Origin: Planctomycetota bacterium
Lineage (GTDB): Bacteria > Planctomycetota > Phycisphaerae > WQYP01
Reading direction: 5' to 3'
Assembly: GCA_021804985.1 (NCBI GenBank)
Contig: JAJZGD010000001.1
Span: forward strand, 9,827 to 73,826
Length of the DNA stretch: 64,000 nucleotides
Numbering within the stretch: position 1 is the first letter of the stretch; every line of letters begins with the position of its first letter. Under the pieces are notes generated by a model. The model made no database searches and was not told the origin of the DNA. It worked only from the letters and a program-made list of their open reading frames with translations. Shown piece after piece: positions 11,039 through 27,102 of the stretch. Made by a program: the position numbers and the translations under genes.

Positions 11039-12013
11039 ATGAAATACGAATCGCCACCTCTGTCACAATTTGCGTTCGATTACGAATCTAAGCGGATCGG
11101 CAAGTCACTAATTGTGCATGCGGATTGTCTGGAATGGCTGGGTCGCGTGCCGAAGGACACTTTGCACGGAATCGTAACGGACCCGCCGTACGGGGTAAAG
11201 GAATACGATTTTGATCAATTGGAAAAGCGGGCCAACGGTAACGGCGGCGTCTGGCGTATCCCACCTTCATTTGATGGGCATACCCGTGCACCGCTGCCAC
11301 GGTTTACGGCGCTCGATGGACAGGATCGCATGCGATTGAGCCGGTTCTTCACGGAATGGGCACGCGCGGCAGGCCACGCATTGCGACCCGGAGGGCATGT
11401 GTTCATTGCCACAAATGCCTTCTTGGCACCGTTGATGTATTCGGCCCTTATGGCCGGTGGGTTGGAATTTCGCGGACAGATTATTCGCCTGGTGCGAACA
11501 CTCCGGGGCGGTGACCGTCCGAAGAATGCGGAGGTGGAATTTCCCGGGGTGTCGTCCCTGCCCCGTGGATGCTATGAGCCATGGGGCTTGTTCCGCAAAC
11601 CGATGTTGCTTGGAATGAAAGTCAGTGACTGCCTCCGTGAATTCCAGACCGGCGGCTTGCGACGGACTAAAGATGATCTACCGTTTTCCGACACAATTTC
11701 GAGCGGCCGGACGCCGCGCCGCGAAAGACTTATAGCGAATCATCCGAGCCTCAAACCCCAATCATTCTTGCGCCAGATCGTCCGCGCATCGTTGCCGATG
11801 GGAGTAGGCGTTGTGGCAGATCCGTTCGCTGGGTCAGGCTCCACGGTAGCGGCCGCAGAGGCGGTTGGCGCGTGGGCGATTGGTGTTGAGCGTTTCGCCG
11901 ACTATTTCGAAATGGCGCAGGATGCCATTCCACGACTGGCAAAGCTGAAACTGGACGAGAAGGCCACCGAGGAGATTGGAGCGAGAGAGTCCCAGTCGTT
12001 ACTTTTTGGTTGA
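11039..12013 (+). CDS. Type II DNA methyltransferase, beta-class N6-adenine or N4-cytosine specific
   Basis: motif IV IVTDPPYG near the N-terminus, AdoMet motif I DPFAGSGST near the C-terminus (beta-class circular permutation), HPSLKPQSFLRQIV segment typical of the N6_N4_Mtase family. Confidence 0.85.
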   Translation: MKYESPPLSQFAFDYESKRIGKSLIVHADCLEWLGRVPKDTLHGIVTDPPYGVKEYDFDQLEKRANGNGGVWRIPPSFDGHTRAPLPRFTALDGQDRMRLSRFFTEWARAAGHALRPGGHVFIATNAFLAPLMYSALMAGGLEFRGQIIRLVRTLRGGDRPKNAEVEFPGVSSLPRGCYEPWGLFRKPMLLGMKVSDCLREFQTGGLRRTKDDLPFSDTISSGRTPRRERLIANHPSLKPQSFLRQIVRASLPMGVGVVADPFAGSGSTVAAAEAVGAWAIGVERFADYFEMAQDAIPRLAKLKLDEKATEEIGARESQSLLFG

Positions 12014-12688
12014 TTGGACGGGCTGGGGTTTGCCGCGAGCACGGTAAATCCAATTGGCTTCCATTTTTTCGAAGCCAGTGCGCATCACGCTTGCCGTTAT
12101 GGTACGGCGGCTGGTGGCCAATCTGCCGGAGAAATTCCAATCCGATTTGGTGATTTTGGCTCCGATGACCTTGACAAATTGGAAGGGCCTAAAGGCGAGT
12201 CCCCTCGTGGCGTCGCGGGGTGCGCTACTATCGAAAACAAACACCATGAGCCACACATTTTCGGGGTTGTGGCCCTGCCAGCCGCTGGGGCGGCGGGAGG
12301 CCTTGATTTCAATCCCTCGGTCAGCGTGAAGGCAGGCGCCGTTTGCATATACGCCAATCGGGATGAGATCGGGGTGGCCGTTGTGAAAGCGGTTCTTGAT
12401 CAAGCCGGGGCAATGTTTCGGAATAGCCGCCGCCAGGAATTCACTTACGATACTGCTAAAATTTGCAGGCATCAGGAATAATTCGAGGGGATCCATGCCC
12501 TTAGAAACCAGGGAACGGTTGATCAGATGTAGGAAAGCGAGAAAATCTTGCATTGCTTTTTTGACGTCCAGCGTGCCTAGGCCGTACGGAAGCTGACACT
12601 CGCGGTTAAACCCTTGTTGGTTGAGGCCGATGGGCACGGCTGTTTTTTTTGAAAGTTTTGCAGCTGGCATGGCGGTAAAATACTCCAT
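11999..12688 (-). CDS. putative Type II restriction endonuclease (PD-(D/E)xK candidate)
   Basis: 229 aa with no recognisable family; contains GHPDLIP...(20 aa)...GIEIKAS matching a PD-x(n)-(D/E)xK nuclease core; convergent with and overlapping the methyltransferase 3' end by 15 bp. Confidence 0.45.
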   Translation of the reverse strand: MEYFTAMPAAKLSKKTAVPIGLNQQGFNRECQLPYGLGTLDVKKAMQDFLAFLHLINRSLVSKGMDPLELFLMPANFSSIVSEFLAAAIPKHCPGLIKNRFHNGHPDLIPIGVYANGACLHADRGIEIKASRRPSGWQGHNPENVWLMVFVFDSSAPRDATRGLAFRPFQFVKVIGAKITKSDWNFSGRLATSRRTITASVMRTGFEKMEANWIYRARGKPQPVQSTKK

Positions 12689-14010: not shown

Positions 14011-14416
14011 TCAGGGTGCAATGGGTCCGGCATATTGCTCATCGGTCACCTTCTCCATCCAATTGACGGGCGAGCCATCCAACTTCTCCTGAATCGCAAT
14101 ATGACTCATGGCGGTGCTTGGTGTTGCGCCGTGCCAATGCCGTTCGCCGGGAGCAAACCAGACAACATCCCCCGCATGGATATGCTCAATCGGATTCCCT
14201 TCGCGCTGCACCATGCCGCAGCCGGCGGTGATGATCAGGGTTTGGCCGAGCGGGTGGGTGTGCCAGGCCGTGCGTGCGCCCGGCTCGAAGGTAACAAGTG
14301 CCATCGCGACGCGCGCCGGACTCGGCGGGCTGAACAAGGGGTCGATGCGAACGGTGCCCGTAAAATAGTCGACCGGGCCTTTGCCCGACGGTTGTGACCC
14401 GCAGCGTTTGATCTCC
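14011..14416 (-). CDS. cupin domain protein
   Basis: cupin motifs G(x)5HxH ([15 protein letters not shown]) and G(x)5PxG...H ([16 protein letters not shown]); ATG at 14416 preceded by AAGGAG 8 nt upstream. Confidence 0.65.
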
Positions 14417-14584
14417 ATAAAATATCTCCTTTGCTCATGGCTTTTGCGAGCAGGCCCGCCGACCCTATGCTCGGCCATTGCCTGAAAAGACTCAGCATGC
14501 CGTACCAGCGGATAACTCGCAAGTGGCGCGAGGCCCCTGCGCAGCTGGTGCGAGGCCGATGCCGAGATGGTGCGCGGCGAGCGT

Positions 14585-15883
14585 CTACTTCTGGGGTACC
14601 AAAGCCGTTCGGCCATCAACGAAATAGGCATGCTTACGTGCCAGGCATTGCTGGCGGAGGGCGGAAATTTTATGCGGGGCGGCAAATTTTAATTCGGGCA
14701 CCCATTTGATCATCGCCCGCGCACGATGCTCAAATTCGCGGCGAAGTGCCGGTTGCTTATTTCTCGGAGAATCAATCCAGACTGTGACGTGATCGGCGCC
14801 AAGCGCGTCGGAGGTGGCGTGCACCAGAAACTCGCCGGTGGCGGCAAAAGATCGCGCCAAATCAGCGAGTGCGGAAGCAAACGTCGATACCCCTTGCACT
14901 TTTAATAATTGGGCGGCTCGTCCGAGCACAGGTCCCAAGCGCGGGGTCTGGCGGCCACATGGGCACACGCCCCGATAAAGCGCAGCGATGTCGCCGGTGT
15001 CGTAGCGTAAAAGAGGCATGGCATCCTGCTTGAAAGGCGTTATGACGACGCGTCCCGGTGTGCCCGAAGCGCACGGTTGATCGGCGGCATCGAGAATTTC
15101 GACCATTCCCAGATGGGGATTAACATGGCCACCATCGCATTGGGGGCCTTGCGCCAATGTCGTGCAGGTTTCAGTGGTGGCGTATGTTGAAAGGAGCGGC
15201 GCCGATACGCAATGCATCAGGCTTTGGCTGAGTATATTGGGCGATAGGCTCGCATCGCGCAGGGGCTCGCCGATGCAAATAACGGCGGCCAGGTTTCGGG
15301 GCAACTTCAAACCACGCGAACACCAGGCAGCCAGCAAAGATGGGACGGCAATGAGAAACCAGCGGCCGCCAGGCTTGAGTGGGCGTTGGTGAAGCGTTTG
15401 AAAATCAGCCATGGCAGGGCCCATTCGCAAGCACGTTGCGCCGAGCCGCTGCGCACCGAGCCAATACGCCAACCCCGCCACAAACAAACGGTCCATGCCC
15501 ACACCAATGAGAACCCCGTCGCCGCGACGAATGCCGGCGAGGGCGAAGGCGGCCGCTTCATTTTCAGCCAGTCGGTTCAGGTCGCGCTCAGCCAGTGCGA
15601 TATGCACCGGCGAGCCTGTGGTTCCAGAGGTTGTTACCCATTCGCGGATAGCGGCAGCCGGCACGGCGAGAAAATCCAATCCATGGTTCACTAAATCGAT
15701 TTTTGTGGTTGTCGGCAGATTGGGAAATACTTTGGCGGCAGCCGCAGCCGATAGGGTCGGCAGGCCAATTCGCCTCAGATAAAATGGGGCCTTCAAGGCG
15801 TGTCGCATTTGCGCAAGCAGCAATGCATTGATGGCGGCGGTTTTTCGCGATTGGCGCCCCGCGCTGCGAATGTCTTTATGCAA
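14585..15883 (-). CDS. adenylate-forming acyl/aryl-CoA ligase, phenylacetate-CoA ligase (PaaK) / coenzyme F390 synthetase family
   Basis: AMP-binding motifs [13 protein letters not shown] and RYDTGD with the domain spacing typical of PaaK-like ligases. Confidence 0.7.
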
Positions 15884-15910: not shown

Positions 15911-18900
15911 TTATGGTGTTTTGGCCAGTCGCAGATATCGCCGAAGCGCCACACGTCTTGCCCGATATGGCGGATCCAGCAAAAGCGTTTTGGTTAAAAG
16001 GATTGCAGCCCGCTTTTTGCGACCCATGGCCAAATCGGCGCGGCCCGCTAGTTCATACGCGGAAAAGAAATCAGGATCATATTGCAATGCCACCATGGCT
16101 TTATGGTAGGCCAGCTTAAAATGGTTCTTGGCGAGGGCATGGTAGCCGGAATGCAGCGCCGCTCGGGCTATCTCAAAGCGATGCCAGCCGCCCGAAACTA
16201 AAAAATGGTCCGCGGGAATGGATGGCAAGAGAACTTTTGCGAGCGGCGGTGGCTCTTTAGAAAGCATGGGTAGCACCTTTACGCCGATATAGGCGCCTTC
16301 GGCATAGGGCCACGCCGCCACCCACAGTTCTCCGTTGGTTAAGTTCATAATGACCGAATGCGTAGCGATGAGCGCATCAATCGCATTCCGATTGCCGTAG
16401 CCGATAAACCGGCCATGCACGCTGGCTTTGTCTCTTAAAAGCTTCGCCAGATTAATCGCATTAACTTTTCCGCGCATGGCATTGATCAGCCGCAGGGCGC
16501 GTGCCATGCGAAACCGCGATGTAGATTGGCGGATTCGCGCTGCATTAACAGGATCGTTCCGAAATACCGGTGCGGTAAATTGATTGGCCACGGCGGCCCG
16601 CTGATCGACGTGAATCACGGCGCAATGCAGCGGCGATTTTTCAATGATTATGCATTGACCGGTTTTGCCGTCGCCCACCACAATGCTGTCGGCCACAAAC
16701 ACCGGCGCACGCCGGAAGATGGATACGGCTTGTGAAAGGCTGTGAGCAAACTGCAGCACCTGTCGCGCGACAATAATCGTCGGCTCACCGATCGGCTTAA
16801 AGCCGACCGTCGCGGCAGCATTGATAAACAAACCTATCTTCTCGCTATTAAAGCCGGTAACACAGCCGCTAAGCCCCGGCCACGCGACGGTCACAAAGCC
16901 GTACCCATGTGAGGGGCGAACGAAGGTGATACTTTTCTGCCGGTTAAAAGCCGGGCCGCCTTCAAAGTCAAAATTTCGGGCGAGCCATAGACAATTATCC
17001 CCCGACCACGCCGGGCACGCCGCAACGCCGGTACAGCCAACGGCGTGCGCATCAATCAGAGGGTTATCAATCAGGTTTTGAGATATGTCGTCGAGTGCTT
17101 CATAAGACAGCAGCCGCGCATAAGTAGGACTCAAATAGGCGTGTAAATCGGGATGCGAACGCGACTCGGCATAGACTTCATGGCGGATATAGGCGGGGAT
17201 ATAATGCGGCAGCCTAAGCATATCCAGTGCCACGCCGCGGGTGATGACCCACTGCGCCCAGAGTGATGGCACAAAATGATGCAATTGATCGAGCATGTCA
17301 TTTTCGATCTCGGTATCGACCGGGGCGCCCAGTGCACCGTCATCGTAGCCCAGTGTGCCCGATGAGCCGCCAACGGACATCACCCACACGCCGTGAACTC
17401 GGCGCATCCACGCATGACCAATTTTCCAACTATTCGGGCCGGTCTGCGTAACGGTGCGGTGCTGGGGCAATCGAACGGCCTTATCAGGGCGTGCGCTAGC
17501 CATCAGCAGTTGTCCGATGCATACCACCAGCATGGCCAGCGCCGCAGCCGCAGCGGCGATCCGAATCAGCCAAAGCAGCGCGGACTCGGGCACGCGTCGC
17601 CAGCTGCGGCAACCGCGGCAACGGTTATTAACGGTATGGCAGCACCAGCGCACGAATGGCCCAACGCAGAGCAATGCCGCAAGGTATCCGCCGCAGATTC
17701 CCGCCACGAGCGTAAGCCCCACCCAATGCAATGCCGGGTGAGCAGCCAGAATAATTGCACCCGAGCCTAATATGGTGGTCAGGGCGCAGATGCCGGTGGT
17801 AAGAATGCGCGGTGATGGTTTATCGGTGCGAAGTGCCGGATCGCTGGCGGTATAGACGCCGTAATCAATGGCGACACCCATGGTAAACAGCAGGGGTATC
17901 ATGGCGAGAAAATTCAGCCCCCCACCAATCCATTGCGCCACGCCTGCCAGCCAGATGAACCCGACCAACAGCGAAAGGGATGCGGCCGCCGCGATTTCCA
18001 ATCGGCGAAAATAGATGCAAACCGGCAAGAAAATGGCCAGGAACACCCAGGGAAAAAGGAACTCCGTCTGGGCCTTGGATTGCTGCGTAGCATTAAACAG
18101 CAGCGCGCTGCCATCAACGAGCAGTACGTGGGGAAATAGCAGTTCAATTTCGGAGGTCCAATCGGTTTGCATTCGCGGCGAGAGTTTGCGATTGGGATAG
18201 ACCACAGTCGCGAGGTAGTGGTGGCTGCGGATTTGAAATACTTGGCCAGGAAAAAGACTTAATGGTGAGTTGCGCAGCCGCGTCGGCGCAGCAAACTGCG
18301 TTGCACGGTGAAAAAACAAAGTGCTTTGCAATGACGGAGCGCGAAAGCCCTGGCGGCTTGCAGCGATTTTCAGGCGTGCATCGATGGCCGCAATCCGTGA
18401 GGCCGTCCAGAAATGCTGCCATCGGGCGATACGCCGGTTAAGCCGCCGGGTGTCCGGCAGCAGGTTGGAAGGTGAAATAAATCCGCCAATCAATTTTTCC
18501 CGCTTCATTCGCGCCAGATCGCTCTGGAGCATCTGCGTTTGCTTAAGCAGTTTGCCGGCACTTCGGCTGCGGGTAATAACCACTCCATGGTGGGCGCTGT
18601 TGCCCCATACTTTAAAAAAGCCTTGCTGCGCGGCCGTTTGTGCCGGGGACGCCCCATTTAAATCGGCGGGGTTAATGTTGTAGTGGAGTTTGGCGGCCTG
18701 CAGCAACAAAAAACTTGTCACGACGGAAAATGCGATAAATGCCACCCAGCGCACCCACCGCGGCAGAGCGAACTGTATTTCGATCGCACGTCGGGGACGA
18801 CAAAACTCGGAGAGATAGGCGGGCAGAATCAGGAACGTAACAAGCCATATCAGCAGCGTGCCCATCGCGATAAATAAACCCATCGCTCGCAGGCCGGGCG

Positions 18901-20119
18901 CCGTGCAGAACGCCAGCGCTCCATAGCCGGTGATGCTGGTCAGAGCGCTCATCGTAATAGGGCCAAACAGCGACCGTGCTGCGACCGCCGCCTCATTGGT
19001 ATGGCTGCCTGGCAACGGAGAGCGAGAACGGCCGTAGGCACCGAGTATTTGAATGCCATAATCAGTCGTAGCGCCAAGAATTAAGCCGGAGAAGGCTAAA
19101 ATCATCAGCGGCAGGTGCGCGCCCGTCAGACCCGATAGCCCCAGCGCCGTGCCAAGCCCCACCACCGGTGGCAGCATGCAGATAAGAAGCGTGCCGATCC
19201 GACGAAAATAGAACCAAATGACAGCCGCCACCAACAGCGTTCCAATGATGGAGACCACGGCAACATCGCGCTTGATTTGGGCGGCATTTTGGACGTACTG
19301 AGTGTAAGGGCCGATGATCCAAAAATGCACATGCGGATAGCGCCGCTGAATGCTCGCGGTTACCGACGAAAGCTGGTTTAGCATTTGCGCGGCGAGCCGC
19401 GTTTGCTGCGGCGAAAACGTCGGCGATAAAACGATCATCGCATGGGTGCGATTTTTGGCCATCAGCAGGCCACCGTTCATGGCCAGATGCGAAATGTTCA
19501 GCGGTGTGGCCGCATTTGCCGATTGCAGTTGCCGGTAAAGCAAGGTGCGGATCGCGAGAGGATCAGTCGTAAGGTTTGACAGATCGAGCAAACCCCCGGG
19601 GGCTTCAAGCCGTTCATGAATGTCGGCAAAGTGCTTCTGCATCCAAGGATCGCCGGTGCGAGCCTTAAGTTTTTGAAAGGATCGACGTGTCAGCAAGGCA
19701 GGAATATCCGCCGTAATGGTGCGTTGGGCCCGATTGAGCGCCGGCAGCGATACGCCATCCCAAAGTGTGCCAAAGATGGGATGCTTACGAAGCGCAGCCG
19801 CCATGGCCCGTACCGCGGAGGGCAATTGCTTTTTAAATTGCGGTTTGGTGTGCAGATCGATATGGAGCGAATCGGCAAGCTGCGGCAATGCGGATATCTG
19901 CCGCCAGGACTGCACCTGTCGGCTGTTTTGCGAAAAAAACAGCAGGACGTTGGTTTGCCAGTGGATGGCGGTGGAAGCGGCTGCGCAAAGCACGGCCGCA
20001 ACAACGAGAAACGCGGAAAGCCATCGGCGGTGGCGCCCCAAAAAGCCGTACCAATGTGCCATCAGTATTAGCAGCGGATCGCGATTTTGGCCGGCGCCCG
20101 GCGCGGCAGGCTCAATCAT
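15911..20119 (-). CDS. fusion protein: MMPL/RND-type exporter (12 TM with two large periplasmic loops) + extra TM + Ntn-hydrolase C45 acyltransferase-like domain + C-terminal TPR repeats
   Basis: two 6-TM bundles (approx aa 285-440 and 690-830) separated by soluble loops as in MMPL/HpnN exporters; Cys-rich linker WCCHTVNNRCRGCRSW; 13th TM (aa 850-870); soluble domain with HAVG|CTGVAACPAWSGDNCLWLARNFDFEGG resembling the Gly-Cys autoproteolytic/nucleophile site of C45 acyl-CoA:6-APA acyltransferase/choloylglycine-hydrolase-type Ntn enzymes; TPR-like tail aa 1300-1402. Confidence 0.6.
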   Translation of the reverse strand: MIEPAAPGAGQNRDPLLILMAHWYGFLGRHRRWLSAFLVVAAVLCAAASTAIHWQTNVLLFFSQNSRQVQSWRQISALPQLADSLHIDLHTKPQFKKQLPSAVRAMAAALRKHPIFGTLWDGVSLPALNRAQRTITADIPALLTRRSFQKLKARTGDPWMQKHFADIHERLEAPGGLLDLSNLTTDPLAIRTLLYRQLQSANAATPLNISHLAMNGGLLMAKNRTHAMIVLSPTFSPQQTRLAAQMLNQLSSVTASIQRRYPHVHFWIIGPYTQYVQNAAQIKRDVAVVSIIGTLLVAAVIWFYFRRIGTLLICMLPPVVGLGTALGLSGLTGAHLPLMILAFSGLILGATTDYGIQILGAYGRSRSPLPGSHTNEAAVAARSLFGPITMSALTSITGYGALAFCTAPGLRAMGLFIAMGTLLIWLVTFLILPAYLSEFCRPRRAIEIQFALPRWVRWVAFIAFSVVTSFLLLQAAKLHYNINPADLNGASPAQTAAQQGFFKVWGNSAHHGVVITRSRSAGKLLKQTQMLQSDLARMKREKLIGGFISPSNLLPDTRRLNRRIARWQHFWTASRIAAIDARLKIAASRQGFRAPSLQSTLFFHRATQFAAPTRLRNSPLSLFPGQVFQIRSHHYLATVVYPNRKLSPRMQTDWTSEIELLFPHVLLVDGSALLFNATQQSKAQTEFLFPWVFLAIFLPVCIYFRRLEIAAAASLSLLVGFIWLAGVAQWIGGGLNFLAMIPLLFTMGVAIDYGVYTASDPALRTDKPSPRILTTGICALTTILGSGAIILAAHPALHWVGLTLVAGICGGYLAALLCVGPFVRWCCHTVNNRCRGCRSWRRVPESALLWLIRIAAAAAALAMLVVCIGQLLMASARPDKAVRLPQHRTVTQTGPNSWKIGHAWMRRVHGVWVMSVGGSSGTLGYDDGALGAPVDTEIENDMLDQLHHFVPSLWAQWVITRGVALDMLRLPHYIPAYIRHEVYAESRSHPDLHAYLSPTYARLLSYEALDDISQNLIDNPLIDAHAVGCTGVAACPAWSGDNCLWLARNFDFEGGPAFNRQKSITFVRPSHGYGFVTVAWPGLSGCVTGFNSEKIGLFINAAATVGFKPIGEPTIIVARQVLQFAHSLSQAVSIFRRAPVFVADSIVVGDGKTGQCIIIEKSPLHCAVIHVDQRAAVANQFTAPVFRNDPVNAARIRQSTSRFRMARALRLINAMRGKVNAINLAKLLRDKASVHGRFIGYGNRNAIDALIATHSVIMNLTNGELWVAAWPYAEGAYIGVKVLPMLSKEPPPLAKVLLPSIPADHFLVSGGWHRFEIARAALHSGYHALAKNHFKLAYHKAMVALQYDPDFFSAYELAGRADLAMGRKKRAAILLTKTLLLDPPYRARRVALRRYLRLAKTP

Positions 20120-20877
20120 GGCGGCCCCACCGGCTTGAAGAGATTGAGGGGAAATACCGGATTAATCGCGGTGCGCGAAAACCAGTAAGTCACGGCCCCT
20201 TGACGCGTGTGAATTTCAATGGCCGCGAGAAAATCTGAATGGCGATCGAAGAACAGTCTGATTTTTGACACTTTGGCGCGCATGGCTTTGAGCCGTGGTA
20301 TCAGGCTAAAGGCCCAAACGCCACCGGTTGGTGCGGGCGCATAATGCACATCACGGCGTGGTGGTTTGGGCAGCATGCGGTGAGATAATGCGATGCGCCC
20401 CCACCGCGTCAGGGCCTTGGCGTTGGGACTGCTGCCAAGGGTGGCAAAGTAGCCCATGATGTAAGCAATTTTCGCTCCGCTGGCGCCTTTTATGCGCTTC
20501 CAGCCATGGCCGACGCGGCATGCAAAAAGCCGCTTGCCGTCGAGCAGATAGACGGCCGGGGTGGGCCATTGGATCGCATAGCGTACCCGCTGTGACCGCT
20601 CAAGGCAGATGGTTCCGCCACTAGCAAACCCATGGGTTAAAAGCGGGGATTTTTCATAGCAGAAAAAATGGGATTTGAGGCGGTTCCACTTCTGGGCAGC
20701 AAGTATCGCCGCCATTCGCGCGGCGGGATTTAAATGGCTGGCCTTTGCCGCGATTGCCGTTGCTCGTACGGCAAGCATCGGCAGCATAATTGCAAGGACG
20801 ATCGCCACCACTGCCGGGCCTATGCGGCAGAGAAACCGAGTGCAAAAGTTTAATCGCTTAGCCATATCCACCGACAT
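20116..20877 (-). CDS. membrane-anchored hypothetical protein, possibly LolA-like lipid/lipoprotein carrier
   Basis: N-terminal TM/signal anchor; beta-rich C-terminus (IRLFFDRHSDFLAAIEIHTRQGAVTYWFS...NPVFPLNLF) reminiscent of LolA-like proteins; stop overlaps start of the exporter gene (ATGA). Confidence 0.35.
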   Translation of the reverse strand: MSVDMAKRLNFCTRFLCRIGPAVVAIVLAIMLPMLAVRATAIAAKASHLNPAARMAAILAAQKWNRLKSHFFCYEKSPLLTHGFASGGTICLERSQRVRYAIQWPTPAVYLLDGKRLFACRVGHGWKRIKGASGAKIAYIMGYFATLGSSPNAKALTRWGRIALSHRMLPKPPRRDVHYAPAPTGGVWAFSLIPRLKAMRAKVSKIRLFFDRHSDFLAAIEIHTRQGAVTYWFSRTAINPVFPLNLFKPVGPP

Positions 20878-20973: not shown

Positions 20974-23900
20974 ATGTATCAGCCCATCATGGGCAAAGTC
21001 GGGATTCGCTGCAGCTTACCCATGCTGCAGAGGGGGGCGGTATCTGCAAAAGGTTTCATTTCCATGCCCATCCGCGTCGCTCTAAATCACGTTACTCGCT
21101 ATAAATATGATCGCTATGTGCGCATGTCGCCGCACGTGGTTCGGCTGCGTCCCGCTCCGCATACCCGCACGCCGATCCTCACTTACCGTTTGAAGGTGGC
21201 GCCGGAAAAGCACTTTATTAATTGGCAACAGGATCCATATTCCAACTATTTGGCGCGGCTTGCCTTCCCGGAACCCGCCACCGAGCTGCGCGTAGAGGTT
21301 GATCTGACCGCCGACATGACGGTGATCAACCCGTTCGATTTTTTCGTTGACGCGGCCGCGGAAAAATATCCTTTTGAATATGACGCCGTGATGAAAAAGG
21401 AACTCCAGGCCTATTTGGAAGTGGGTCCGCCTGGCCCTGAACTTGCCAAGCTGATTGCGGCGCACCAGAGACGTGGTTTACGTTCGATTGATTTTCTGGT
21501 GGATCTGAATCGTGATATTCACCAAAGGCTCAAATATCTTATTCGCATGGAGCCGGGCGTACAGTCCCCGGCGGAAACGCTCCGTATGGGGATGGGATCA
21601 TGCCGCGATTTTGCGTGGCTGCTGGTAAATCTGGCCCGAAATTTGGGACTGGCAGCCCGCTTCGTATCCGGCTATCTGATTCAGTTGGTGGCGGATGTAA
21701 AGCCCTTGGATGGGCCGGCGGGAACTCCGGTAGATTTTACCGACCTGCATGCATGGGCCGAGATATATCTGCCGGGTGCCGGTTGGGTAGGGTTGGATTC
21801 CACGAGCGGCTTATTTACCGGCGAGGGTCATATTCCCCTGGCATGCACGGCGGAGCCGAGTTCAGCATCGCCGGTAAGCGGCATGGTGGATGATTGCAAC
21901 GTCGAATTCAGTTTTGAAATGTCCGTGCGGCGCATCTTTGAAAGCCCGCGTGTAACCAAGCCGTATACGCCCGAACAATGGCAGAAAATCATCGATCTCG
22001 GGCACCGCGTTGATACGGATATTCAGGCGTCGGACATTCGACTGACGGTTGGTGGGGAGCCGACGTTCGTATCGGTGGATGATATGGATGGCGCCGAGTG
22101 GAACACCACGGCCATGGGCCCGCGGAAGCGTCTGCTCGCCGGAAATCTTCTGAAGCGATTGCAGAAGCGCTTTGCGCCGGGGGGCTTTCTGCATCATGGT
22201 CAGGGCAAATGGTATCCGGGCGAATCGTTACCCCGGTGGACATTTGGCTGCTATTGGCGCAAGGATGGGCAGCCCATATGGCAAAACCCGGCACTGATCG
22301 CCGACGAAGATCAAAGTTACCAATACGGCCCGACCCACGCCCGTGAATTTCTGCAAGAGCTTATCAAGCGTTTGGGTGAAGGGGCGCTTTTAGAGCACGC
22401 CCTGCCCGCCTTTGAAGATGTCTGGTATTACCTCTGGAAAGAGCGGCGGCTGCCCGCCAATGTCGATCCATTTGTTAACCATCTGGAAAACCCGGAAGAT
22501 CGGGCACGGCTCGCCAAAGTATTTGAGCAGGGGCTTGATCAGAATGTCGGTTATGCGCTGCCGATTCGCAATCTTGGCAGTGCGGGCAGTGGCTATTGGC
22601 AGACCGGTTCGTGGTTCTTCCGGTCGGAGCGCATGTATCTTATTCCTGGCGATTCGCCCATGGGTTACCGTCTGCCGTTGGATTCTTTGCCATGGGTTCC
22701 CAAGGCTGATTTTCCTTACATATACCATCATGATCCAATGGAAACGCTGCGGCCATTGCCGGCGGCGCGACTGCGGCAGCGGTACGTCAGCGGAGCGCCG
22801 GAGGCAGTTACGCCGCCGGGCATTCGTGAGCAATCGCTCGATGACATCGCGGGGCCCGACGGCACCATGAGCGAAGGTTTGCTCGCGGAATACCGACGCC
22901 TTCTGGCGGAAAATCCTCCCGGAGAGTTTGAAGCCGGCAAACCCGCGCCGTGGATCATCCGCACGGCTTTATGCGTTGAACCGAGACAGGGAATTCTGCG
23001 CATTTTTATGCCGCCGGTGCGCGACACGGAAGATTATCTTGATCTTATCAGTCGCGTGGAGGAAACGGCAGCGTATCTTTCCATGCCAGTCATGTTTGAA
23101 GGTTATCCCCCCCCACCGGATCCCCGGCTCAACGTGCTCAAGGTGACGCCCGACCCCGGCGTCATTGAAGTTAATATTCATCCGGTAACGACATGGGATG
23201 ACGCGGTCAGCGTTACCACGGGTCTTTACCAGGATGCACACGAATCGCGCCTGGGCACGGAAAAATTCATGCTGGATGGCCGGCATTCAGGCACGGGCGG
23301 CGGCAACCACATTGTTGTGGGCGGCAGCACGCCTTCGGATTCGCCATTTCTGCGCCGGCCCGATTTGCTCAAGAGCCTCGTATCGTTTTGGCATAACCAT
23401 CCGTCGTTGTCTTACCTTTTTTCGGGAACGTTTATTGGCCCGACCAGCCAGGCGCCGCGGGTGGATGAAGGCCGGTTTGATAACACCTATGAACTGGAAA
23501 TTGCGCGGGGCGAAATTGGCAAGGCCGGTGCGGAAACGCCGCCTTGGATGGTCGATCGCATTTTCCGAAATTTGCTGGTGGATCTGACGGGCAACACGCA
23601 TCGGGCGGAATTCTGCATCGACAAGCTATACAGCCCCGATTCGGCCGCCGGCCGCATGGGCGTCGTGGAGTTCCGCGGTTTCGAAATGCCGCCCCATGCG
23701 CAAATGTCGCTCACGCAGCAGCTGCTGCTGCGTTCGCTGATCGCGCAGTTCTGGCATGAGCCTTATGAGGCCGGCCTGATACGGTGGAATTCGGAACTTC
23801 ATGACCGGTTTCTGCTTCCGCACTTTACCAACGCCGACTTTCAGGATGTGCTCGCGTCGCTCAAACGCCATCCGCTTGAACCGCAGTGGTTCGCTCCGCA

Positions 23901-24462
23901 CATGGAATTCCGCTTTCCGCAAATTGGCGACGTAACTTTACCGAGCACCGGCGGCGTAAAATTGGAACTGCGGCAGGCGATTGAGCCCTGGAACGTACTG
24001 GGCGAAGAACCGGGTGGTGGCGGAACCGTGCGCTACGTAGACTCGTCGGTTGAACGGGTTGAAATGAAGGTGCAGGGCCTGGTCGATGGGCGACACCGCG
24101 TGGCCTGCAACGGCGTGGAAATTCCGCTGCATGGCACCGGCGTGCGCGGCGAGTTTGTCGCTGGCGTGCGGTATCGCGCATGGCAGCCCGCCACCTGCCT
24201 GCATCCAACCATCGGCATTCATTCACCTCTGATTTTTGATCTGGTGGATACCTGGAACAACCGATCGGTCGGCGGGTGCACTTTTCACAGCGTGCATCCG
24301 GGCGGCCGCTCATTTGCCACCTTTCCTGTCAATAGCTTCGAGGCGGAATCCCGGCGAGCGGCACGATTCTTTAAATTTGGCCACACGCCCGGCCCCATCA
24401 CGCTCGAAGAGCTGGAGCGTTCCAAGGAATTTCCGCTTACGCTGGACCTTCGACGACTTTAG
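20974..24462 (+). CDS. large transglutaminase-like protein with C-terminal DUF2126-type domain
   Basis: Bact_transglu_N-like start (MPIRVALNHVTRYKYDRY, probable true start at 21064), transglutaminase core with Cys/His/Asp (GSCRDFAWLL, DLHAWAEIY, GLD), about 1100 aa architecture characteristic of DUF2126 proteins. Confidence 0.8.
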   Translation: MYQPIMGKVGIRCSLPMLQRGAVSAKGFISMPIRVALNHVTRYKYDRYVRMSPHVVRLRPAPHTRTPILTYRLKVAPEKHFINWQQDPYSNYLARLAFPEPATELRVEVDLTADMTVINPFDFFVDAAAEKYPFEYDAVMKKELQAYLEVGPPGPELAKLIAAHQRRGLRSIDFLVDLNRDIHQRLKYLIRMEPGVQSPAETLRMGMGSCRDFAWLLVNLARNLGLAARFVSGYLIQLVADVKPLDGPAGTPVDFTDLHAWAEIYLPGAGWVGLDSTSGLFTGEGHIPLACTAEPSSASPVSGMVDDCNVEFSFEMSVRRIFESPRVTKPYTPEQWQKIIDLGHRVDTDIQASDIRLTVGGEPTFVSVDDMDGAEWNTTAMGPRKRLLAGNLLKRLQKRFAPGGFLHHGQGKWYPGESLPRWTFGCYWRKDGQPIWQNPALIADEDQSYQYGPTHAREFLQELIKRLGEGALLEHALPAFEDVWYYLWKERRLPANVDPFVNHLENPEDRARLAKVFEQGLDQNVGYALPIRNLGSAGSGYWQTGSWFFRSERMYLIPGDSPMGYRLPLDSLPWVPKADFPYIYHHDPMETLRPLPAARLRQRYVSGAPEAVTPPGIREQSLDDIAGPDGTMSEGLLAEYRRLLAENPPGEFEAGKPAPWIIRTALCVEPRQGILRIFMPPVRDTEDYLDLISRVEETAAYLSMPVMFEGYPPPPDPRLNVLKVTPDPGVIEVNIHPVTTWDDAVSVTTGLYQDAHESRLGTEKFMLDGRHSGTGGGNHIVVGGSTPSDSPFLRRPDLLKSLVSFWHNHPSLSYLFSGTFIGPTSQAPRVDEGRFDNTYELEIARGEIGKAGAETPPWMVDRIFRNLLVDLTGNTHRAEFCIDKLYSPDSAAGRMGVVEFRGFEMPPHAQMSLTQQLLLRSLIAQFWHEPYEAGLIRWNSELHDRFLLPHFTNADFQDVLASLKRHPLEPQWFAPHMEFRFPQIGDVTLPSTGGVKLELRQAIEPWNVLGEEPGGGGTVRYVDSSVERVEMKVQGLVDGRHRVACNGVEIPLHGTGVRGEFVAGVRYRAWQPATCLHPTIGIHSPLIFDLVDTWNNRSVGGCTFHSVHPGGRSFATFPVNSFEAESRRAARFFKFGHTPGPITLEELERSKEFPLTLDLRRL

Positions 24463-24508
24463 GCGCCCTTGTGGCGAACGATGCATTTATGGATGATCAT
24501 GGACGATT

Positions 24509-27073
24509 ATGACGGCCGGCCAAGTCGATATTTCTGCAGCGGACGAAGCCCAGGGGCCCGGGGGGCTGTTTGGTGCCTACCGCACTGACTCGCAGGTGCC
24601 CGATGAGATGATGGACGCAAGGGGCGCCGTGCGGCCGCACTGGCAGATGATCACCAATCTGCTTGATGATCTCGGCCCTACCGAGCTCGAGCGGCGGTGG
24701 GCCACATCCCGCCAGTTAATTCACGACAACGGCGTTACCTACAATGTCTATGGCGATCCCGCCGGTTTGGATCGGCCGTGGGTGCTTGACGCGCTGCCAT
24801 TGGTCTTTTCGGCTTCGGAGTGGGCCACCCTCAGTGAAGGTCTTATCCAGCGTGCGAGGGTACTTGATCTGGCCTTGGCCGATCTTTACGGCCCGCAGAA
24901 ACTTCTGCAGGATTCAGTTATTCCACCGGAAGTGATATTTGCGAATCCGAGCTTCCTGCGCCCGTTGCGTGGTGTGCGGCCCGAAGGCAACCGCTGGCTG
25001 CACATGGCCGCGACGGATGTGGGCCGCAACCGCGACGGCACGCTATGTATTTTGACGGATCGCACGCAGGCGCCATCCGGCGCCGGCTACGCGCTGGAAA
25101 ATCGGATCGTCATCTCGCGCGCCCTGCCGGATATCTTTCGCGATTGCCGCGTCAGCCGACTCGCCACCTTTTTTCGGTCGATGCGGAATCTTTTACAGAT
25201 GATGGCACCGCGTAGTCGGGAAAATCCGCGTATCGTGCTATTAACGCCTGGCCCATACAACGAAACCTATTTTGAACACGCGTATCTCGCCCGCTATCTC
25301 GGGTATACCCTGGTTGAAGGGGCGGACCTTACCGTACGAGATAATCGTGTATATATGAAGATGCTTGGTGGTTTGCAGCAGGTGGATGTGATTTTACGCC
25401 GTCAGGACGACGTATATTGCGATCCATTGGAACTGCTGCCCGATAGCGCGCTGGGGATTCCGGGGCTTGTTCAGGCGGTGCATTCGGGACAGGTCACGGT
25501 GGCCAATGCACTCGGTTCAGGTGTGATGGAATCGCCGGCAATCGAAATGTTTATACCGCGTATCTGTCGGCATTTGCTGGGCGAAGAGTTAAGACTTCCC
25601 GCGGTCCGTTCATACTGGTGCGGCGATCCGGAGGCACTCGGATATGTGCTGGCCAATCTCAGCAGGATACTTATTAAGCCGGCGTTCTACACACCTGGGC
25701 AATTTCCCATACCCACCGAATCATTAACACAGGCGCAGCTCGCCGAGCTCCGCAGCAAAATCATCGCATATCCTTCAGAGTTTGTCGGCGAAGAACAGAT
25801 CCCTCTTTCAACGGCGCCAATTCTGGCTAACGGCCGGGTGGAACCACGACATATCGCCTTTCGCGCTCATATGGTTGCTAACGCCGATACCTACACGGTA
25901 ATGCCCGGCGGCCTGACGCGTTTTTCAATCTCGCCGGATTCGATGATCGTCGCCATGCAGCGCGGCGGCGGATCCAAGGATACGTGGATTCTCTCGGGCG
26001 GCCCGGTTGATCCCTTCAGCTTTCTCACCCCGCCCGGGGCCGCCGTGCGTATTTCCCGCGCCGGTGGCGATCTTTCCAGCCGCGTAGCTGACAATTTATT
26101 CTGGCTGGGCCGGTACGTGGAACGAGCGGAATCGCTGGCGCGTCTGGCACGCGGAATGGTTGCCCGACTGGTGGATCAAAACTTTGAATCCAGCGCGGAG
26201 CTGCCGATTCTGCTTACTGCCCTGATCGCGCAGGCCAATCTCAAGCCCCATGAAATTGCCGATCAAACGCGAGAATCGCTGCTCGCGGCCATTCTGCTGG
26301 ACGCCAAATATACCGATGGCCTGCAATCCACTCTCGGCGCGATTTATCAGTCGGCAAGTTTGGTGCGCGACCGAATGTCCATCGACACATGGCGCATCAT
26401 CAACCGGCTCGATCAAGACTTTACCACTCGGCCGACCACCACGCTGGAGCTTAGCGAACTGCTGGCATCATTGGACAAGCTTATCGTCACGTTTGCCGCG
26501 TTTGGCGGATTGGCGATGGAGTCGATGACGCGCGGCCTTGCATGGCGCTTTCTCGATATGGGCCGCCGCATTGAGCGCGGGCTAAGCATGGCGCAACTCT
26601 GCATTCATGCAATGACACTTCCTCAGCCGCGCGAAGGGTTGATTCTTGAAGCGCTACTGGAAATCGCGGATTCCGCGATCACGTATCGTCGCCGTTACAT
26701 GACGACACTGCAGGTTCCGCTCGTGGCCGATTTGCTTCTGGCCGACGAGACCAATCCGCGTGCCGTAGCTTTTCAGTTGATGCGCATGCAGGAGCATCTC
26801 GGGGCGCTTCCGCGTCTTCATCAGGAAATCCAATTAACGCCTGCGGATCAAATTATTCTTCGGCGACTGACAGAACTTAGGCTCGCGGATTTCAGCCTGC
26901 TTTCGCCGATGGAAGGTGCCCAACGCACCCACCTGCGAAGCATGCTTGAAAATATGACGGCGGACTTATTCAAGCTTTCCGATCTGCTGAGCCAAACCTA
27001 CCTGAGCCATGCGGGGCCCGGACGGCAGCTTGGCTCTCCGATACCGGCGAGTGCCGGCAAGGGAAGCAGTTAA
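24509..27073 (+). CDS. circularly permuted type-2 ATP-grasp amidoligase fused to alpha-E domain
   Basis: N-terminal CP-ATP-grasp pattern (VRPHW...GVTYNVYGD) followed by the helical alpha-E region in one 854-aa ORF; canonical partners of transglutaminase-like genes. Confidence 0.75.
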   Translation: MTAGQVDISAADEAQGPGGLFGAYRTDSQVPDEMMDARGAVRPHWQMITNLLDDLGPTELERRWATSRQLIHDNGVTYNVYGDPAGLDRPWVLDALPLVFSASEWATLSEGLIQRARVLDLALADLYGPQKLLQDSVIPPEVIFANPSFLRPLRGVRPEGNRWLHMAATDVGRNRDGTLCILTDRTQAPSGAGYALENRIVISRALPDIFRDCRVSRLATFFRSMRNLLQMMAPRSRENPRIVLLTPGPYNETYFEHAYLARYLGYTLVEGADLTVRDNRVYMKMLGGLQQVDVILRRQDDVYCDPLELLPDSALGIPGLVQAVHSGQVTVANALGSGVMESPAIEMFIPRICRHLLGEELRLPAVRSYWCGDPEALGYVLANLSRILIKPAFYTPGQFPIPTESLTQAQLAELRSKIIAYPSEFVGEEQIPLSTAPILANGRVEPRHIAFRAHMVANADTYTVMPGGLTRFSISPDSMIVAMQRGGGSKDTWILSGGPVDPFSFLTPPGAAVRISRAGGDLSSRVADNLFWLGRYVERAESLARLARGMVARLVDQNFESSAELPILLTALIAQANLKPHEIADQTRESLLAAILLDAKYTDGLQSTLGAIYQSASLVRDRMSIDTWRIINRLDQDFTTRPTTTLELSELLASLDKLIVTFAAFGGLAMESMTRGLAWRFLDMGRRIERGLSMAQLCIHAMTLPQPREGLILEALLEIADSAITYRRRYMTTLQVPLVADLLLADETNPRAVAFQLMRMQEHLGALPRLHQEIQLTPADQIILRRLTELRLADFSLLSPMEGAQRTHLRSMLENMTADLFKLSDLLSQTYLSHAGPGRQLGSPIPASAGKGSS

Positions 27074-27102
27074 CTTCAGGTAATCTGAGCAGCGAGTATT
27101 CC

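Follow-up and report, generated by a model that had tools for sequence, protein, structure and literature searches.

Exporters of the MMPL/RND superfamily often need periplasmic partners, and in mycobacteria MmpL3 works with antigen 85 and MmpL10 with Chp2, acyltransferases that act outside the cytoplasm as separate proteins. In the flexirubin clusters of Chitinophaga pinensis and Flavobacterium johnsoniae, the FlxU exporter, the FlxW C45/Ntn hydrolase and the FlxY ligase adjoin each other (PMC3992019). A role for FlxW in coupling the polyene to dialkylresorcinol was put forward without a test, and no other enzyme has been assigned to the ester-forming step in flexirubin producers (PMC3992019). 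No papers testing FlxW were found in our literature search. ApeL/M/N is a proposed export route for aryl-polyene lipids (PMC8253772; bioRxiv 10.1101/2020.12.19.423268). Herein, a gene that joins an MMPL exporter to a C45 domain was analyzed in a planctomycete window of 64,000 nucleotides, which is the whole stretch of DNA studied.

Architecture of the exporter-C45 protein

The frame at 15911..20119 on the minus strand is unbroken, starts with ATG and has 1402 codons. The features of the gene and its two neighbors are as follows.

15911..20119 (-), MMPL/RND exporter, TM13, C45 Ntn domain and TPR tail, 1402 aa (intact ORF, domain matches, collinear homologues)
17630..20119 (-), MMPL/RND transporter core, residues 1-830, 12 TM helices (Pfam MMPL, HpnN profile alignment, hydropathy)
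19058..19063 (-), Asp353-Tyr354 in TM4 (TTDYG), candidate proton-relay pair
17861..17866 (-), Asp752-Tyr753 in TM10 (AIDYG), second candidate proton-relay pair
17597..17644 (-), cytoplasmic Arg/Cys-rich linker CCHTVNNRCRGCRSWR, residues 826-841 (direct reading)
17495..17587 (-), 13th transmembrane helix, residues 845-875, predicted N-in/C-out (hydropathy, AF2 model, flank charges)
17036..17494 (-), C45 pro/alpha-subunit region, residues 876-1028 (alignment, conservation)
17033..17035 (-), Cys1029 codon, predicted autoprocessing site Gly1028|Cys1029 and catalytic nucleophile (invariance, alignment, start of core strand)
16220..17035 (-), C45 beta-subunit catalytic core, residues 1029-1300, with R1048, D1051, N1100 and R1244 invariant
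15914..16189 (-), C-terminal TPR tail, residues about 1311-1402, five helices, about 2.5 repeats
20116..20877 (-), LolA-like gene upstream of the fusion, 253 aa, with an N-terminal hydrophobic export segment (LolA2_flexi, orthologue in locus L010)
14585..15883 (-), FlxY/ApeH-like adenylate-forming acyl ligase downstream, 432 aa (FlxY_rubin, DVU_1553 and PaaK models)

The initial annotation read residues of about 1-830 as a complete MMPL transporter, and this was borne out. Pfam MMPL PF03176 matched residues 240-453 with 41.6 bits against a cut-off of 20.5. HpnN (5khn) residues 4-862 aligned end to end with positions 10-830 of a transporter profile built from residues 1-835 and unfused relatives (E 6e-66). 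Hydropathy gave TM1 (34-55), a loop, TM2-6, TM7 (455-477), a loop, and TM8-12 (686-822), with the large periplasmic loops spanning about residues 56-285 and 478-685. Both Asp-Tyr pairs are invariant in 16 fusions, and D353 is unchanged also among distant MMPL relatives; by analogy with MmpL3 and HpnN, the TM4 pair may be a proton relay. An HpnN orthologue was ruled out, as the window protein scored 58 bits against the HpnN model with its cut-off of 752.

The core is followed by the linker CCHTVNNRCRGCRSW at residues 826-840. It is Cys-rich, as had been pointed out, but this is lineage-specific: even 60%-identical homologues do not conserve the linker, and its Arg-rich character is kept in homologues while the Cys residues are not. 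The hydrophobic helix 845-875, already proposed as a 13th TM helix, was found in all 16 aligned fusions. Its Kyte-Doolittle peak, averaged over 19 residues, is 2.41, and the AF2 model shows it as an unbroken helix of 30 residues.

The domain behind this helix has the Ntn fold of the C45 family, and its assignment as C45 acyltransferase-like was confirmed by two matches above curated cut-offs, NCBIfam C45_proenzyme NF040521 at residues 995-1265 (E 1e-39, 136.8 bits, cut-off 85) and Pfam AAT PF03417 at residues 1038-1233 (49.8 bits, cut-off 23.2). The best structural and sequence match of the domain was an acyltransferase, by a wide margin, and the next-best structural matches were hydrolases. 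The pro/alpha region 876-1028 is highly conserved and can be aligned to the N-terminal portion of the precursor of isopenicillin-N acyltransferase. The HAVG|CTG site covers residues 1025-1031, and its Gly-Cys pair presumably aligns with G102-C103 of the acyltransferase. A Gly/Ala-Cys site is present in 113 of 114 family members. The set C1029/R1048/D1051/N1100/R1244 is invariant across the fusions down to 25% identity, and Cys1029 with the Arg/Asp/Asn/Arg set is nearly invariant across 115 family members. In the predicted structure, Cys1029 opens a core beta-strand right after a low-confidence loop (pLDDT about 60). This modeled position and the invariance point to Cys1029 as the putative nucleophile, the role first suggested for it. 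The TPR tail at about residues 1311-1402 has five helices and about 2.5 repeats; a Pfam search of the single window sequence gave no TPR match at E<=1.

The side of the membrane was assessed by the flanks of the anchor helix in 114 family members. The mean number of K and R was 3.9 in the N-flank versus 1.75 in the C-flank, and the net charge was +3.5 versus +0.2. In stand-alone homologues the anchor helix stands at the very start of the chain and serves as a signal anchor, an N-terminal hydrophobic segment is present in 176 of 186 stand-alone members, and several of these C45 proteins have classic lipoboxes. Some stand-alone relatives thus have lipoprotein signal peptides, which are expected only on exported proteins. 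The HpnN-type core, the positive-inside charges and the lipoprotein signals strongly suggest, on sequence rules, that the C45 domain is periplasmic, where the initial annotation had placed it.

Recurrence of the fusion and its gene neighborhood

Collinear fusion homologues were found at 38-61% identity, and the fusion occurs in about 17 Planctomycetota/Phycisphaerae MAG species. A second fusion clade is formed by Myxococcota and Proteobacteria-labelled MAGs; six of its proteins (about 1285-1353 aa) were sampled, with AAT matches in 6/6, TPR in 5/6 and Pfam MMPL in 3/6. Among the best 150 representatives of 50% clusters, 22 were at least 1270 aa long. The C45-TPR module is also fused to PF01553 and to a PF01522 deacetylase, and stand-alone TM+C45+TPR proteins of about 565 aa cover 90-98% of it. 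The sequence is from metagenome-type assemblies and all relatives are MAGs, so a misassembly or frameshift that fuses two adjacent genes has to be weighed, and in locus L005 the opposite case was seen, with the MMPL in pieces ahead of the C45 ORF. Such an artefact is next to impossible here, as dozens of independent assemblies share the collinear fusion at 25-61% identity with the TM helix in the same position, and a second source contains the identical 1402-aa protein. These data support the claim of a single gene. Each of the refuting tests set out with the initial annotation was applied, and its reading withstood all of them.

The stop codon of the LolA-like gene overlaps the start codon of the fusion (ATGA). 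NCBIfam LolA2_flexi matched this gene with E 5e-4, under its cut-off. BLASTP gave E 4e-13 to the orthologue in L010, which itself has a Pfam LolA match and a LolA2_flexi match of E 6e-11. The ligase starts 27 bp past the fusion's stop with AGGAG in front. FlxY_rubin matched it with E 4e-91 and 305.8 bits, under the equivalog cut-off of 520, and the DVU_1553 and PaaK models match it too. No ketosynthase, ACP or glycosyltransferase genes were found within the window; the trio may therefore serve another substrate.

In three relatives (L001, L010, L011), the fusion lies inside a polyene-type cluster with KS/CLF, ACP, ApeI/ApeP-like dehydratases, PF01553 and LpxL-like acyltransferases, GT2-DUF2062, a deacetylase and a radical SAM enzyme; the ligase was not seen in L011. 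At the Myxococcales locus L012, the fusion is accompanied by PF01553, two ACPs, LolA and a GT2-LpxL-like gene. A DUF3261/ApeN-like gene is found in some relatives and is absent beside the window gene. In the same kind of cluster, locus L006 has a stand-alone TM+C45+TPR protein beside a FlxU-like MMPL-acyltransferase-methyltransferase. Stand-alone proteins of this build belong regularly to such clusters, as FlxW does in Chitinophaga. Many Planctomycetota have a LolA-MMPL-ligase module with no C45 gene nearby (for example L003), which indicates that the C45 enzyme is dispensable for export as such.

The architecture had been described as one not recognized before. The exporter-C45 fusion is real, but it is not isolated, since its halves are neighbors in flexirubin/aryl-polyene-type clusters. 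Because FlxU/FlxW-type halves are known neighbors, the fusion is a Rosetta-stone variant of a known system and not an isolated oddity. The exporter and the C45 protein are usually separate in polyene-pigment clusters and are fused here, which suggests that the predicted enzyme works on a lipid outside the cytoplasm, at the exporter.

Proposed function and alternatives

The reading to which we give about an even chance is that the gene encodes an ApeM/FlxU-type exporter of an aryl-polyene/flexirubin-like outer-membrane lipid pathway that has captured a FlxW-type C45 enzyme, a periplasmic transacylase/deacylase that would remodel the lipid before the LolA-like carrier. The adjacent ligase would act earlier, in the cytoplasm, by activating a carboxylic-acid starter. 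The 12-TM core would use the proton gradient through the TM4 and TM10 Asp-Tyr pairs and raise the inner-membrane lipid into the periplasmic domains. TM13 would return the chain across the membrane, which places the C45-TPR module in the periplasm beside the exporter. The precursor may cleave itself between Gly1028 and Cys1029; the alpha-piece would stay covalently tethered to TM13 and bind the beta-piece (Cys1029 to the end, including the TPRs) non-covalently. An acyl group of the exported lipid would pass to a Cys1029 thioester and then to an acceptor in the periplasm or outer membrane. The product would be taken to the outer membrane by the LolA-like protein, which is translationally coupled to the fusion, and the TPRs are probably a docking site for this carrier or another partner. 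We infer, as was first proposed, that acylation or deacylation of the substrate is coupled to export.

A periplasmic C45 domain may also be a plain amidase or esterase of the NAAA, acid ceramidase or bile-salt hydrolase type, which takes an acyl or N-acyl group off the exported lipid with no acceptor. The mature pigment or lipid could be freed from a carrier lipid in this way, or trimmed ahead of LolA-like transport. This is possible but on balance improbable. No energy-rich donor is required in the periplasm, and past the nucleophile there is an R-N-x-D motif (ARNFDF), which we liken to the motif of bile-salt hydrolase/penicillin V acylase. The clusters also carry polysaccharide deacetylase and amino-sugar-type chemistry, making amide bonds plausible in the substrate. 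The wide margin of the acyltransferase match and the flexirubin ester-forming step with no other assigned enzyme (PMC3992019) speak against hydrolysis and are not decisive. Transfer and hydrolysis cannot be separated by sequence; transacylation is slightly more likely.

It is unlikely that the C45 domain is cytoplasmic and, like isopenicillin-N acyltransferase, N- or O-acylates the lipid before export with acyl-CoA or acyl-AMP made by the ligase encoded 27 bp downstream, although the C45 founding member, as its family name tells, uses acyl-CoA. The segment 845-875 would then be membrane-associated or re-entrant, but it is a continuous 30-residue helix of high hydrophobicity, the positive-inside rule is obeyed as N-in/C-out across the 114 homologues, stand-alone homologues have N-terminal signal anchors, some of them have lipoprotein signal peptides, and the MMPL core is aligned with HpnN to the cytoplasmic C-terminus. 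A C45-TPR module that serves as a periplasmic lipid-binding or docking adaptor between exporter and LolA-like carrier, with no acyl chemistry, is very unlikely. TPRs are protein-interaction modules and exporters of this superfamily often require periplasmic partners, but the nucleophile Cys and the Arg/Asp/Asn/Arg set are invariant in fusions down to 25% identity, which is unexpected for a dead enzyme.

Comparison with known systems

The flexirubin FlxU/FlxW/FlxY system has the same three families in the same order and neighborhood (MMPL exporter, C45, PaaK/F390-type ligase). Orthologous loci with LolA-like genes, GT2-DUF2062, deacetylase and PlsC/LpxL-type acyltransferases add to the likeness, and the window ligase and LolA-like protein match Flx models best. 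The window exporter and C45 domain, however, are one polypeptide joined via an extra TM helix, whereas FlxU bears cytoplasmic acyl- and methyltransferase domains instead. Scores in the window fall short of the Flx equivalog cut-offs, the window lacks DarA/DarB and polyene synthase genes, and the host is a Phycisphaerae-like planctomycete, not a member of Bacteroidota. ApeL-ApeM-ApeN with ApeH (E. coli CFT073, Xenorhabdus doucetiae) similarly combines a LolA-like protein, an RND/MMPL transporter and an adenylating enzyme in a proposed mover of polyene lipid to the outer membrane, and the orthologous loci share ApeI/ApeP-like dehydratases and KS/CLF pairs with it, but a C45 gene is missing from the aryl-polyene clusters of E. 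coli and Xenorhabdus.

For the transporter half, the closest solved structure is the hopanoid transporter HpnN (PDB 5khn, 6wu0), in which the 12 TM helices and both periplasmic loops are covered; the HpnN chain stops on the cytoplasmic side after TM12, with no enzyme attached. The C45 founding member, Penicillium chrysogenum acyl-CoA:isopenicillin N acyltransferase (PDB 2x1c/2x1d), has the same Gly-Cys self-processing site and an Asp after the nucleophile, with 17% identity. The Penicillium protein is a soluble enzyme of peroxisomes that uses acyl-CoA, whereas the window domain is membrane-tethered, predicted to be in the periplasm, where CoA is absent, and followed by TPRs. In mycobacteria, the final acyl transfer to an MMPL-delivered lipid likewise takes place outside the cytoplasm by an enzyme encoded nearby; those partners are alpha/beta hydrolases and not Ntn enzymes, and they are separate polypeptides that act in another envelope on other lipids.

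The fusion gene and its two halves

The fusion is carried by an unbroken, ATG-started frame of 1402 codons (15911..20119, minus strand), as seen in the translated window. The initial annotation had read this frame as an MMPL exporter that continues through a thirteenth transmembrane helix into a C45-type Ntn domain with a TPR tail. ORF translation, Pfam and NCBIfam bore out its coordinates, its frame and every element listed for it. The finding is genuine and was correctly interpreted, and the gene is less isolated than was then thought.

A word-indexed search returned homologues collinear with the fusion over its full length in 16 clusters (1364-1459 aa, 38-61% identity), the named ones being Phycisphaerae metagenome-assembled genomes (MAGs), and one further homologue of 1272 aa with 26% identity. 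When the C-terminal 567 residues were searched exhaustively by phmmer against 1.84 billion representatives, 257 representatives were found at E<1e-30, and 22 of the best 150 were at least 1270 aa long. A second clade of fusions (1284-1353 aa) was sampled with six members; Pfam detected AAT in all six, TPR in five and MMPL in three, and one of the six came from a Myxococcales MAG. In a scan of one genome per species, the complete or junction-spanning fusion was present in about 17 Planctomycetota/Phycisphaerae MAGs, in two Myxococcota MAGs and in three labelled Alpha- or Proteobacteria. The same scan found an unfused orthologue (about 830-840 aa, 40% identity) in about twenty Planctomycetota MAGs, such as those of loci L026-L039. 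All sources found for the fusion are MAGs, with no cultured carrier among them. The many collinear homologues in independent assemblies rule out a frameshift or assembly artefact joining two genes, and the one-gene reading of the initial annotation holds.

At locus L005 (7359-11707), a 568-aa C45 protein (P0048, 44% identical) apparently stands alone. Short ORFs of 161, 265 and 286 aa run up to its start, and one of these matches MMPL faintly. This series is most likely the same fusion split by assembly frameshifts.

Neighbour joining of the C45 module on Kimura distances, a quick calculation without bootstrap support, placed the MMPL fusions in two main blocks, between which lie the PF01553 fusions, themselves a block, and stand-alone proteins. 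The separation of the two blocks suggests that the fusion arose more than once. Some copies carry the NCBI label 'C45 family autoproteolytic acyltransferase/hydrolase'. No mention of an MMPL-C45 fusion was found in the literature, and the architecture is undescribed as far as searched.

Both halves belong clearly to their superfamilies, MMPL/RND and C45 Ntn. The transporter half was matched by Pfam MMPL (PF03176) at residues 240-453 with 41.6 bits against a cut-off of 20.5, as its annotation as an RND-superfamily MMPL protein had led one to expect. Its hydropathy profile consists of TM1 (34-55), a long loop, five helices (286-437), TM7 (455-477), a second long loop and five helices (686-822). 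This is the internally duplicated MMPL plan of 12 helices with large extracytoplasmic loops between TM1 and TM2 and between TM7 and TM8. A profile built from fusion residues 1-835 and unfused relatives was aligned over positions 10-830 with residues 4-862 of the HpnN structure (5khn, E 6e-66), followed by weaker matches to MmpL4/5, MmpL3, Dispatched, AcrB-type pumps and SecDF. The NCBIfam transporter models (HAE3, HpnN, MMPL, BstA) gave only sub-threshold matches to the fusion. Orthology with HpnN was rejected, the scores for TIGR03480 (58.3 vs 751.85 bits) and NF052374 (32.8 vs 1100 bits) lying far below the equivalog cut-offs.

The conserved charged residues of TM4 and TM10 are retained. Asp353-Tyr354 (TM4, TTDYG) and Asp752-Tyr753 (TM10, AIDYG) are invariant in 16/16 aligned fusions, and Asp353 is invariant in distant MMPL relatives as well. 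Going by MmpL3 and HpnN, these Asp-Tyr positions are presumably the proton relay, and the transporter half therefore looks functional as judged from conservation.

The C45 assignment of the enzyme half was likewise upheld by two models above their curated cut-offs. NCBIfam C45_proenzyme (NF040521) matched residues 995-1265 (E 1e-39, 136.8 bits vs cut-off 85), and Pfam AAT/C45 (PF03417) matched residues 1038-1233 (49.8 bits vs cut-off 23.2). Tandem 34-residue helix-turn-helix repeats that match TPR models form the tail. The family profile matched an acyltransferase sequence in the PDB (E 1e-13), and the C45 region as a single sequence gave a marginal match among PDB sequences (E 0.17) to 2x1d, the structure of the fungal isopenicillin-N acyltransferase.

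Residues 836-1402 were modelled from an alignment of 115 family members, with a mean pLDDT of 94.8 and a pTM of 0.93. The predicted fold is an Ntn alpha-beta-beta-alpha sandwich in which the nucleophile opens a core strand. Lower-ranked fold matches to solved structures were cephalosporin acylases, phospholipase-B-like proteins and bile-salt hydrolases. The core strand begins at Cys1029, where the initial annotation had put the nucleophile, directly after a loop whose low confidence (pLDDT about 60) fits a pro-segment junction. The active-site geometry was assessed from secondary structure, alignment and fold matches.

The HAVG-CTG segment singled out in the initial annotation corresponds to residues 1025-1031, and 113/114 family members have Gly-Cys or Ala-Cys at the processing site. 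Cys1029, Thr1030, Gly1031, Arg1048, Asp1051, Asn1100 and Arg1244 are invariant in the fusions and invariant or nearly so in the wider family. The family GCT is taken to align with Gly102-Cys103-Thr of the fungal acyltransferase, and RNFDF with its QNWDF.

The junction and the side of the membrane

The two halves are joined by a short charged segment and a hydrophobic helix.

17597-17644, minus strand: Arg/Cys-rich cytoplasmic linker between TM12 and TM13, residues 826-841, CCHTVNNRCRGCRSW

The Cys-rich linker pointed out in the initial annotation is real in the window protein, with five cysteines within 16 residues, and it is found there alone. The homologue alignment showed the cysteines to be absent from all homologues, including the 60%-identical ones, and the Arg-rich, positively charged character to be kept. 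The cysteine motif is, by this comparison, a peculiarity of the lineage and no feature of the family. A functional motif is unsupported since the cysteines are not conserved; they may be a metal site, an acylation site or nothing.

The residues of the thirteenth helix, 845-875, are strongly hydrophobic (19-residue Kyte-Doolittle mean 2.41), have a counterpart in every homologue and form one continuous 30-residue helix in the AlphaFold model.

A periplasmic location of the C45-TPR module, as the initial annotation had argued from topology, is strongly inferred because three independent lines agree. HpnN is a 12-helix protein with a cytoplasmic C-terminus; the MMPL core aligns to that cytoplasmic end, and therefore one more spanning helix puts the remainder outside. 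The second line is the charge around the anchor helix, counted in 114 family members that comprise MMPL-fused, PF01553-fused and stand-alone proteins. The 15 residues on its N-terminal flank hold a mean of 3.9 Lys+Arg (net +3.5) and the 15 on its C-terminal flank 1.75 (net +0.2), a sequence pattern of the positive-inside, N-in/C-out type. The third line comes from stand-alone relatives. A hydrophobic segment is present at the start of 176/186 complete members, and several have textbook lipoprotein signal peptides (e.g. LLGAC, LLSAC, LLAAC), which are exclusive to exported proteins. P0189, a deacetylase-C45 fusion with several hydrophobic segments, was left out of the argument because of its ambiguous topology. 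Hydropathy of the FlxU-like fusions resolved their helices too crudely for counting and was left out as well.

Gene neighbourhood and the module elsewhere

In the window, the fusion lies between two genes with which it forms a compact minus-strand trio:

20116..20877, minus strand: LolA-like gene, upstream of the fusion, 253 aa, stop overlapping the fusion start (ATGA), N-terminal hydrophobic export segment
14585..15883, minus strand: adenylate-forming ligase, beginning 27 bp after the fusion stop, 432 aa, preceded by AGGAG

The ligase scores best with the flexirubin-synthesis model FlxY (E 4e-91, 305.8 bits vs equivalog cut-off 520), followed by the DVU_1553 family and then PaaK. The LolA-like protein matches LolA2_flexi weakly (E 5e-4, 19.5 bits vs cut-off 125). 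In L010, a Phycisphaerae locus, the gene upstream of the fusion encodes a homologue of it (E 4e-13) that has a Pfam LolA match and reaches E 6e-11 with LolA2_flexi. The direct sequence support for a LolA-like assignment is weak, and the transitive support is good. Both proteins miss the Flx equivalog cut-offs, though Flx models score best for both. Exporter, C45 domain and ligase lie side by side, as in flexirubin clusters.

No ketosynthase, ACP or glycosyltransferase gene is present in the 64-kb window, and the remainder consists of housekeeping genes. The closest relative (60% identity) also carries the trio in detached form, at locus L009, in another neighbourhood beside hyp/hox hydrogenase genes, and the trio appears to move as a unit. 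Loci L013-L015 likewise have it detached. KS/CLF, ACP, ApeI/ApeP-type dehydratases and lipid-anchoring transferases are absent from both the window and L009. Pfam matches suggested no darA/darB or tyrosine ammonia-lyase in the window or the examined loci.

Several other genes were noted in the window. Directly downstream of the ligase (14011-14685, minus strand), a cupin scores above the (R)-mandelonitrile lyase cut-off (NF049940, 202.9 vs 140 bits) with matched residues 92-219. The TTG listed as its start lies within the 3' end of the ligase gene, and the true start is probably further downstream; in L009 this gene does not accompany the trio. The stretch 20974-28014 (plus strand), divergent from the trio, contains a gene for a 1162-aa transglutaminase-N/transglutaminase-core/DUF2126 'amidoligase' protein, followed in the same direction by ORFs of 854 aa and then 303 aa, known from translations alone. 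An N6/N4 DNA methyltransferase gene (PF01555; 11039-12013, plus strand) is convergent and overlapping with a 229-aa ORF without a Pfam match (11999-12688, minus strand), and the two may be a restriction-modification pair.

In the more distant Phycisphaerae loci L001 and L010, the LolA-like/fusion/ligase unit lies inside a larger cluster, and in L011 the same cluster genes surround the LolA-like/fusion pair with no ligase called. These clusters contain KS/CLF, polysaccharide deacetylase, PlsC-type acyltransferase, ApeP-like and ApeI-like dehydratases, ACP, LpxL-like acyltransferase, GT2-DUF2062 and a radical SAM enzyme. The Myxococcales fusion (L012) is flanked on one side by genes for LolA, two ACPs and a PlsC-type acyltransferase, and on the opposite side by a gene for a GT2-LpxL-like protein. 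Aryl-polyene-type genes are found beside the orthologous fusion in all four loci. A DUF3261-like gene in the relatives scores at or below the cut-off.

The radical SAM gene adjoins GT2-DUF2062 and the LpxL-like acyltransferase (about 20-24 kb in L001, L005, L010 and L011). The lipid made by the fusion-bearing Phycisphaerae clusters may differ from known aryl polyenes, because the E. coli aryl-polyene gene table has no radical SAM entry.

The unit also exists without the enzyme. In L003 (8887-14576), a LolA-like gene, an unfused MMPL gene, a gene for a 240-aa protein (weakly DUF3261, ApeN-like) and a ligase gene form a unit with no C45 gene within 10 kb. Since such C45-less versions of the trio exist, the C45 enzyme is an accessory to export and no requirement. 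The 240-aa DUF3261-like gene is absent beside the trio in the window and L009, and gain of the C45 module and loss of this gene may be linked.

The C45 module likewise exists without the exporter. A search with the C-terminal 533 residues revealed a large family of about 565-aa proteins that cover 90-98% of the module (anchor helix, C45, TPR), and stand-alone C45-TPR proteins occur in Myxococcota, Acidobacteriota/Thermoanaerobaculia and others. In L006, one of these is encoded among ketosynthases, ACP, LolA, an FlxY-like ligase (399 bits), GT2-DUF2062 and a 1329-aa MMPL-acyltransferase-methyltransferase. Elsewhere the C45(-TPR) module is fused to PlsC-type acyltransferase PF01553 (L008 10001-12487; P0066, P0076, P0078, P0094 and P0173, about 830-900 aa) or to polysaccharide deacetylase PF01522 (P0189, 1012 aa), with a hydrophobic helix preceding the C45 part in both. 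Every fusion partner is an enzyme that belongs to lipid attachment/export, and the PlsC-type and deacetylase fusions point to this stage rather than to polyene synthesis.

Possible role and relation to known systems

In Chitinophaga pinensis (Schoener et al. 2014 supplement), the flx genes comprise flxT (GT2), flxU (exporter carrying acyl- and methyltransferase domains), flxV (reductase), flxW (peptidase C45/Ntn hydrolase; Cpin_1875), flxX and flxY (CoA ligase), and Fjoh_1075-1078 of Flavobacterium johnsoniae, with Fjoh_1076 as flxW, have the same order (PMC3992019). FlxW was proposed, without test, to join the aryl-octaene to the dialkylresorcinol (PMC3992019). In two further papers, the flexirubin/aryl-polyene cluster genes listed for Flavobacteriia include a C45 'acyl-CoA:6-APA acyltransferase'. 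Apart from annotation tables and the proposal in PMC3992019, nothing on a FlxW-type protein and no experimental test was found in the literature. Proteobacterial aryl-polyene clusters have no C45 gene; ApeH is their adenylating starter enzyme, and ApeL (LolA-like), ApeM (RND) and ApeN (DUF3261) are the proposed carriers of the finished lipid to the outer membrane (PMC8253772; bioRxiv 10.1101/2020.12.19.423268). Attachment, export and finishing of the products of such clusters are so far proposals (PMC8253772; bioRxiv 10.1101/2020.12.19.423268).

It is possible, and is put forward here tentatively, that the fusion is an exporter-held, self-cleaving Cys-Ntn transacylase that completes, outside the cytoplasm, a polyene-type lipid of the outer membrane, which a LolA-like chaperone then receives. 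The MMPL half would bring up the lipid. Ntn enzymes need self-cleavage to free the amino group of the nucleophile, and cleavage at Gly1028|Cys1029 would leave a 153-residue pro-segment on TM13. This tethered segment would hold the beta-chain and the TPRs non-covalently and so keep the transacylase at the MMPL exit; the cleaved alpha and beta chains remain associated in NAAA, in acid ceramidase and in the fungal acyltransferase. Cys1029 would take an acyl group from the exported carrier lipid as a thioester and pass it to a final acceptor (or to water), and the product would go to the translationally coupled LolA-like protein.

Whether the acyl group goes to an acceptor or to water separates this reading from hydrolysis of the exported lipid, which is nearly as likely. 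We lean towards transfer because a transferase is by far its nearest relative, and because the ester-forming step of flexirubin synthesis has no other candidate enzyme. Transfer is also favoured because flexirubin clusters keep the full set of lipid-anchoring genes despite a simple-ester pigment, which makes sense if the anchored form is an export intermediate. The neighbouring ligase suggests another role, a cytoplasmic and acyl-CoA-dependent one; this conflicts with the HpnN-type core, the positive-inside charges and the signal segments of the stand-alone proteins alike, and the predicted periplasmic location argues against acyl-CoA as the donor.

If periplasmic transacylation is true, FlxW-type enzymes in general would be periplasmic, those of flexirubin producers included, and the 'lipid-anchoring' genes would make a transport intermediate and not the end product. 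The fusion serves as a natural Rosetta stone, physically tying the C45 enzyme to an exporter, and its extra membrane helix argues for C45 work on the periplasmic side. It gives an uncharacterised enzyme both a compartment and a partner; the enzyme occurs in flexirubin-type and related clusters, all part of a very widespread cluster family. The site and manner of the final acyl transfer, and with them the late steps of polyene-lipid assembly, become directly testable, and the fusion offers a compact single-gene model for exporter-coupled lipid remodelling.

Among known systems, the window trio resembles the flxU-flxV-flxW-flxX-flxY and Fjoh_1075-1078 adjacency of flexirubin clusters. It is not a member of the strict flexirubin pathway, as the equivalog cut-offs are missed, no dar genes were seen and the phylum is another one; nor is the system an Ape cluster. 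Of the two genes expected beside the RND transporter in an ApeL/ApeM/ApeN module, the window has a LolA-like one, assigned with weak direct and good transitive support, and no DUF3261-like one. The MMPL-C45 protein does not stand for a system of a new kind; it is a natural and informative fusion of two parts already known as neighbours.
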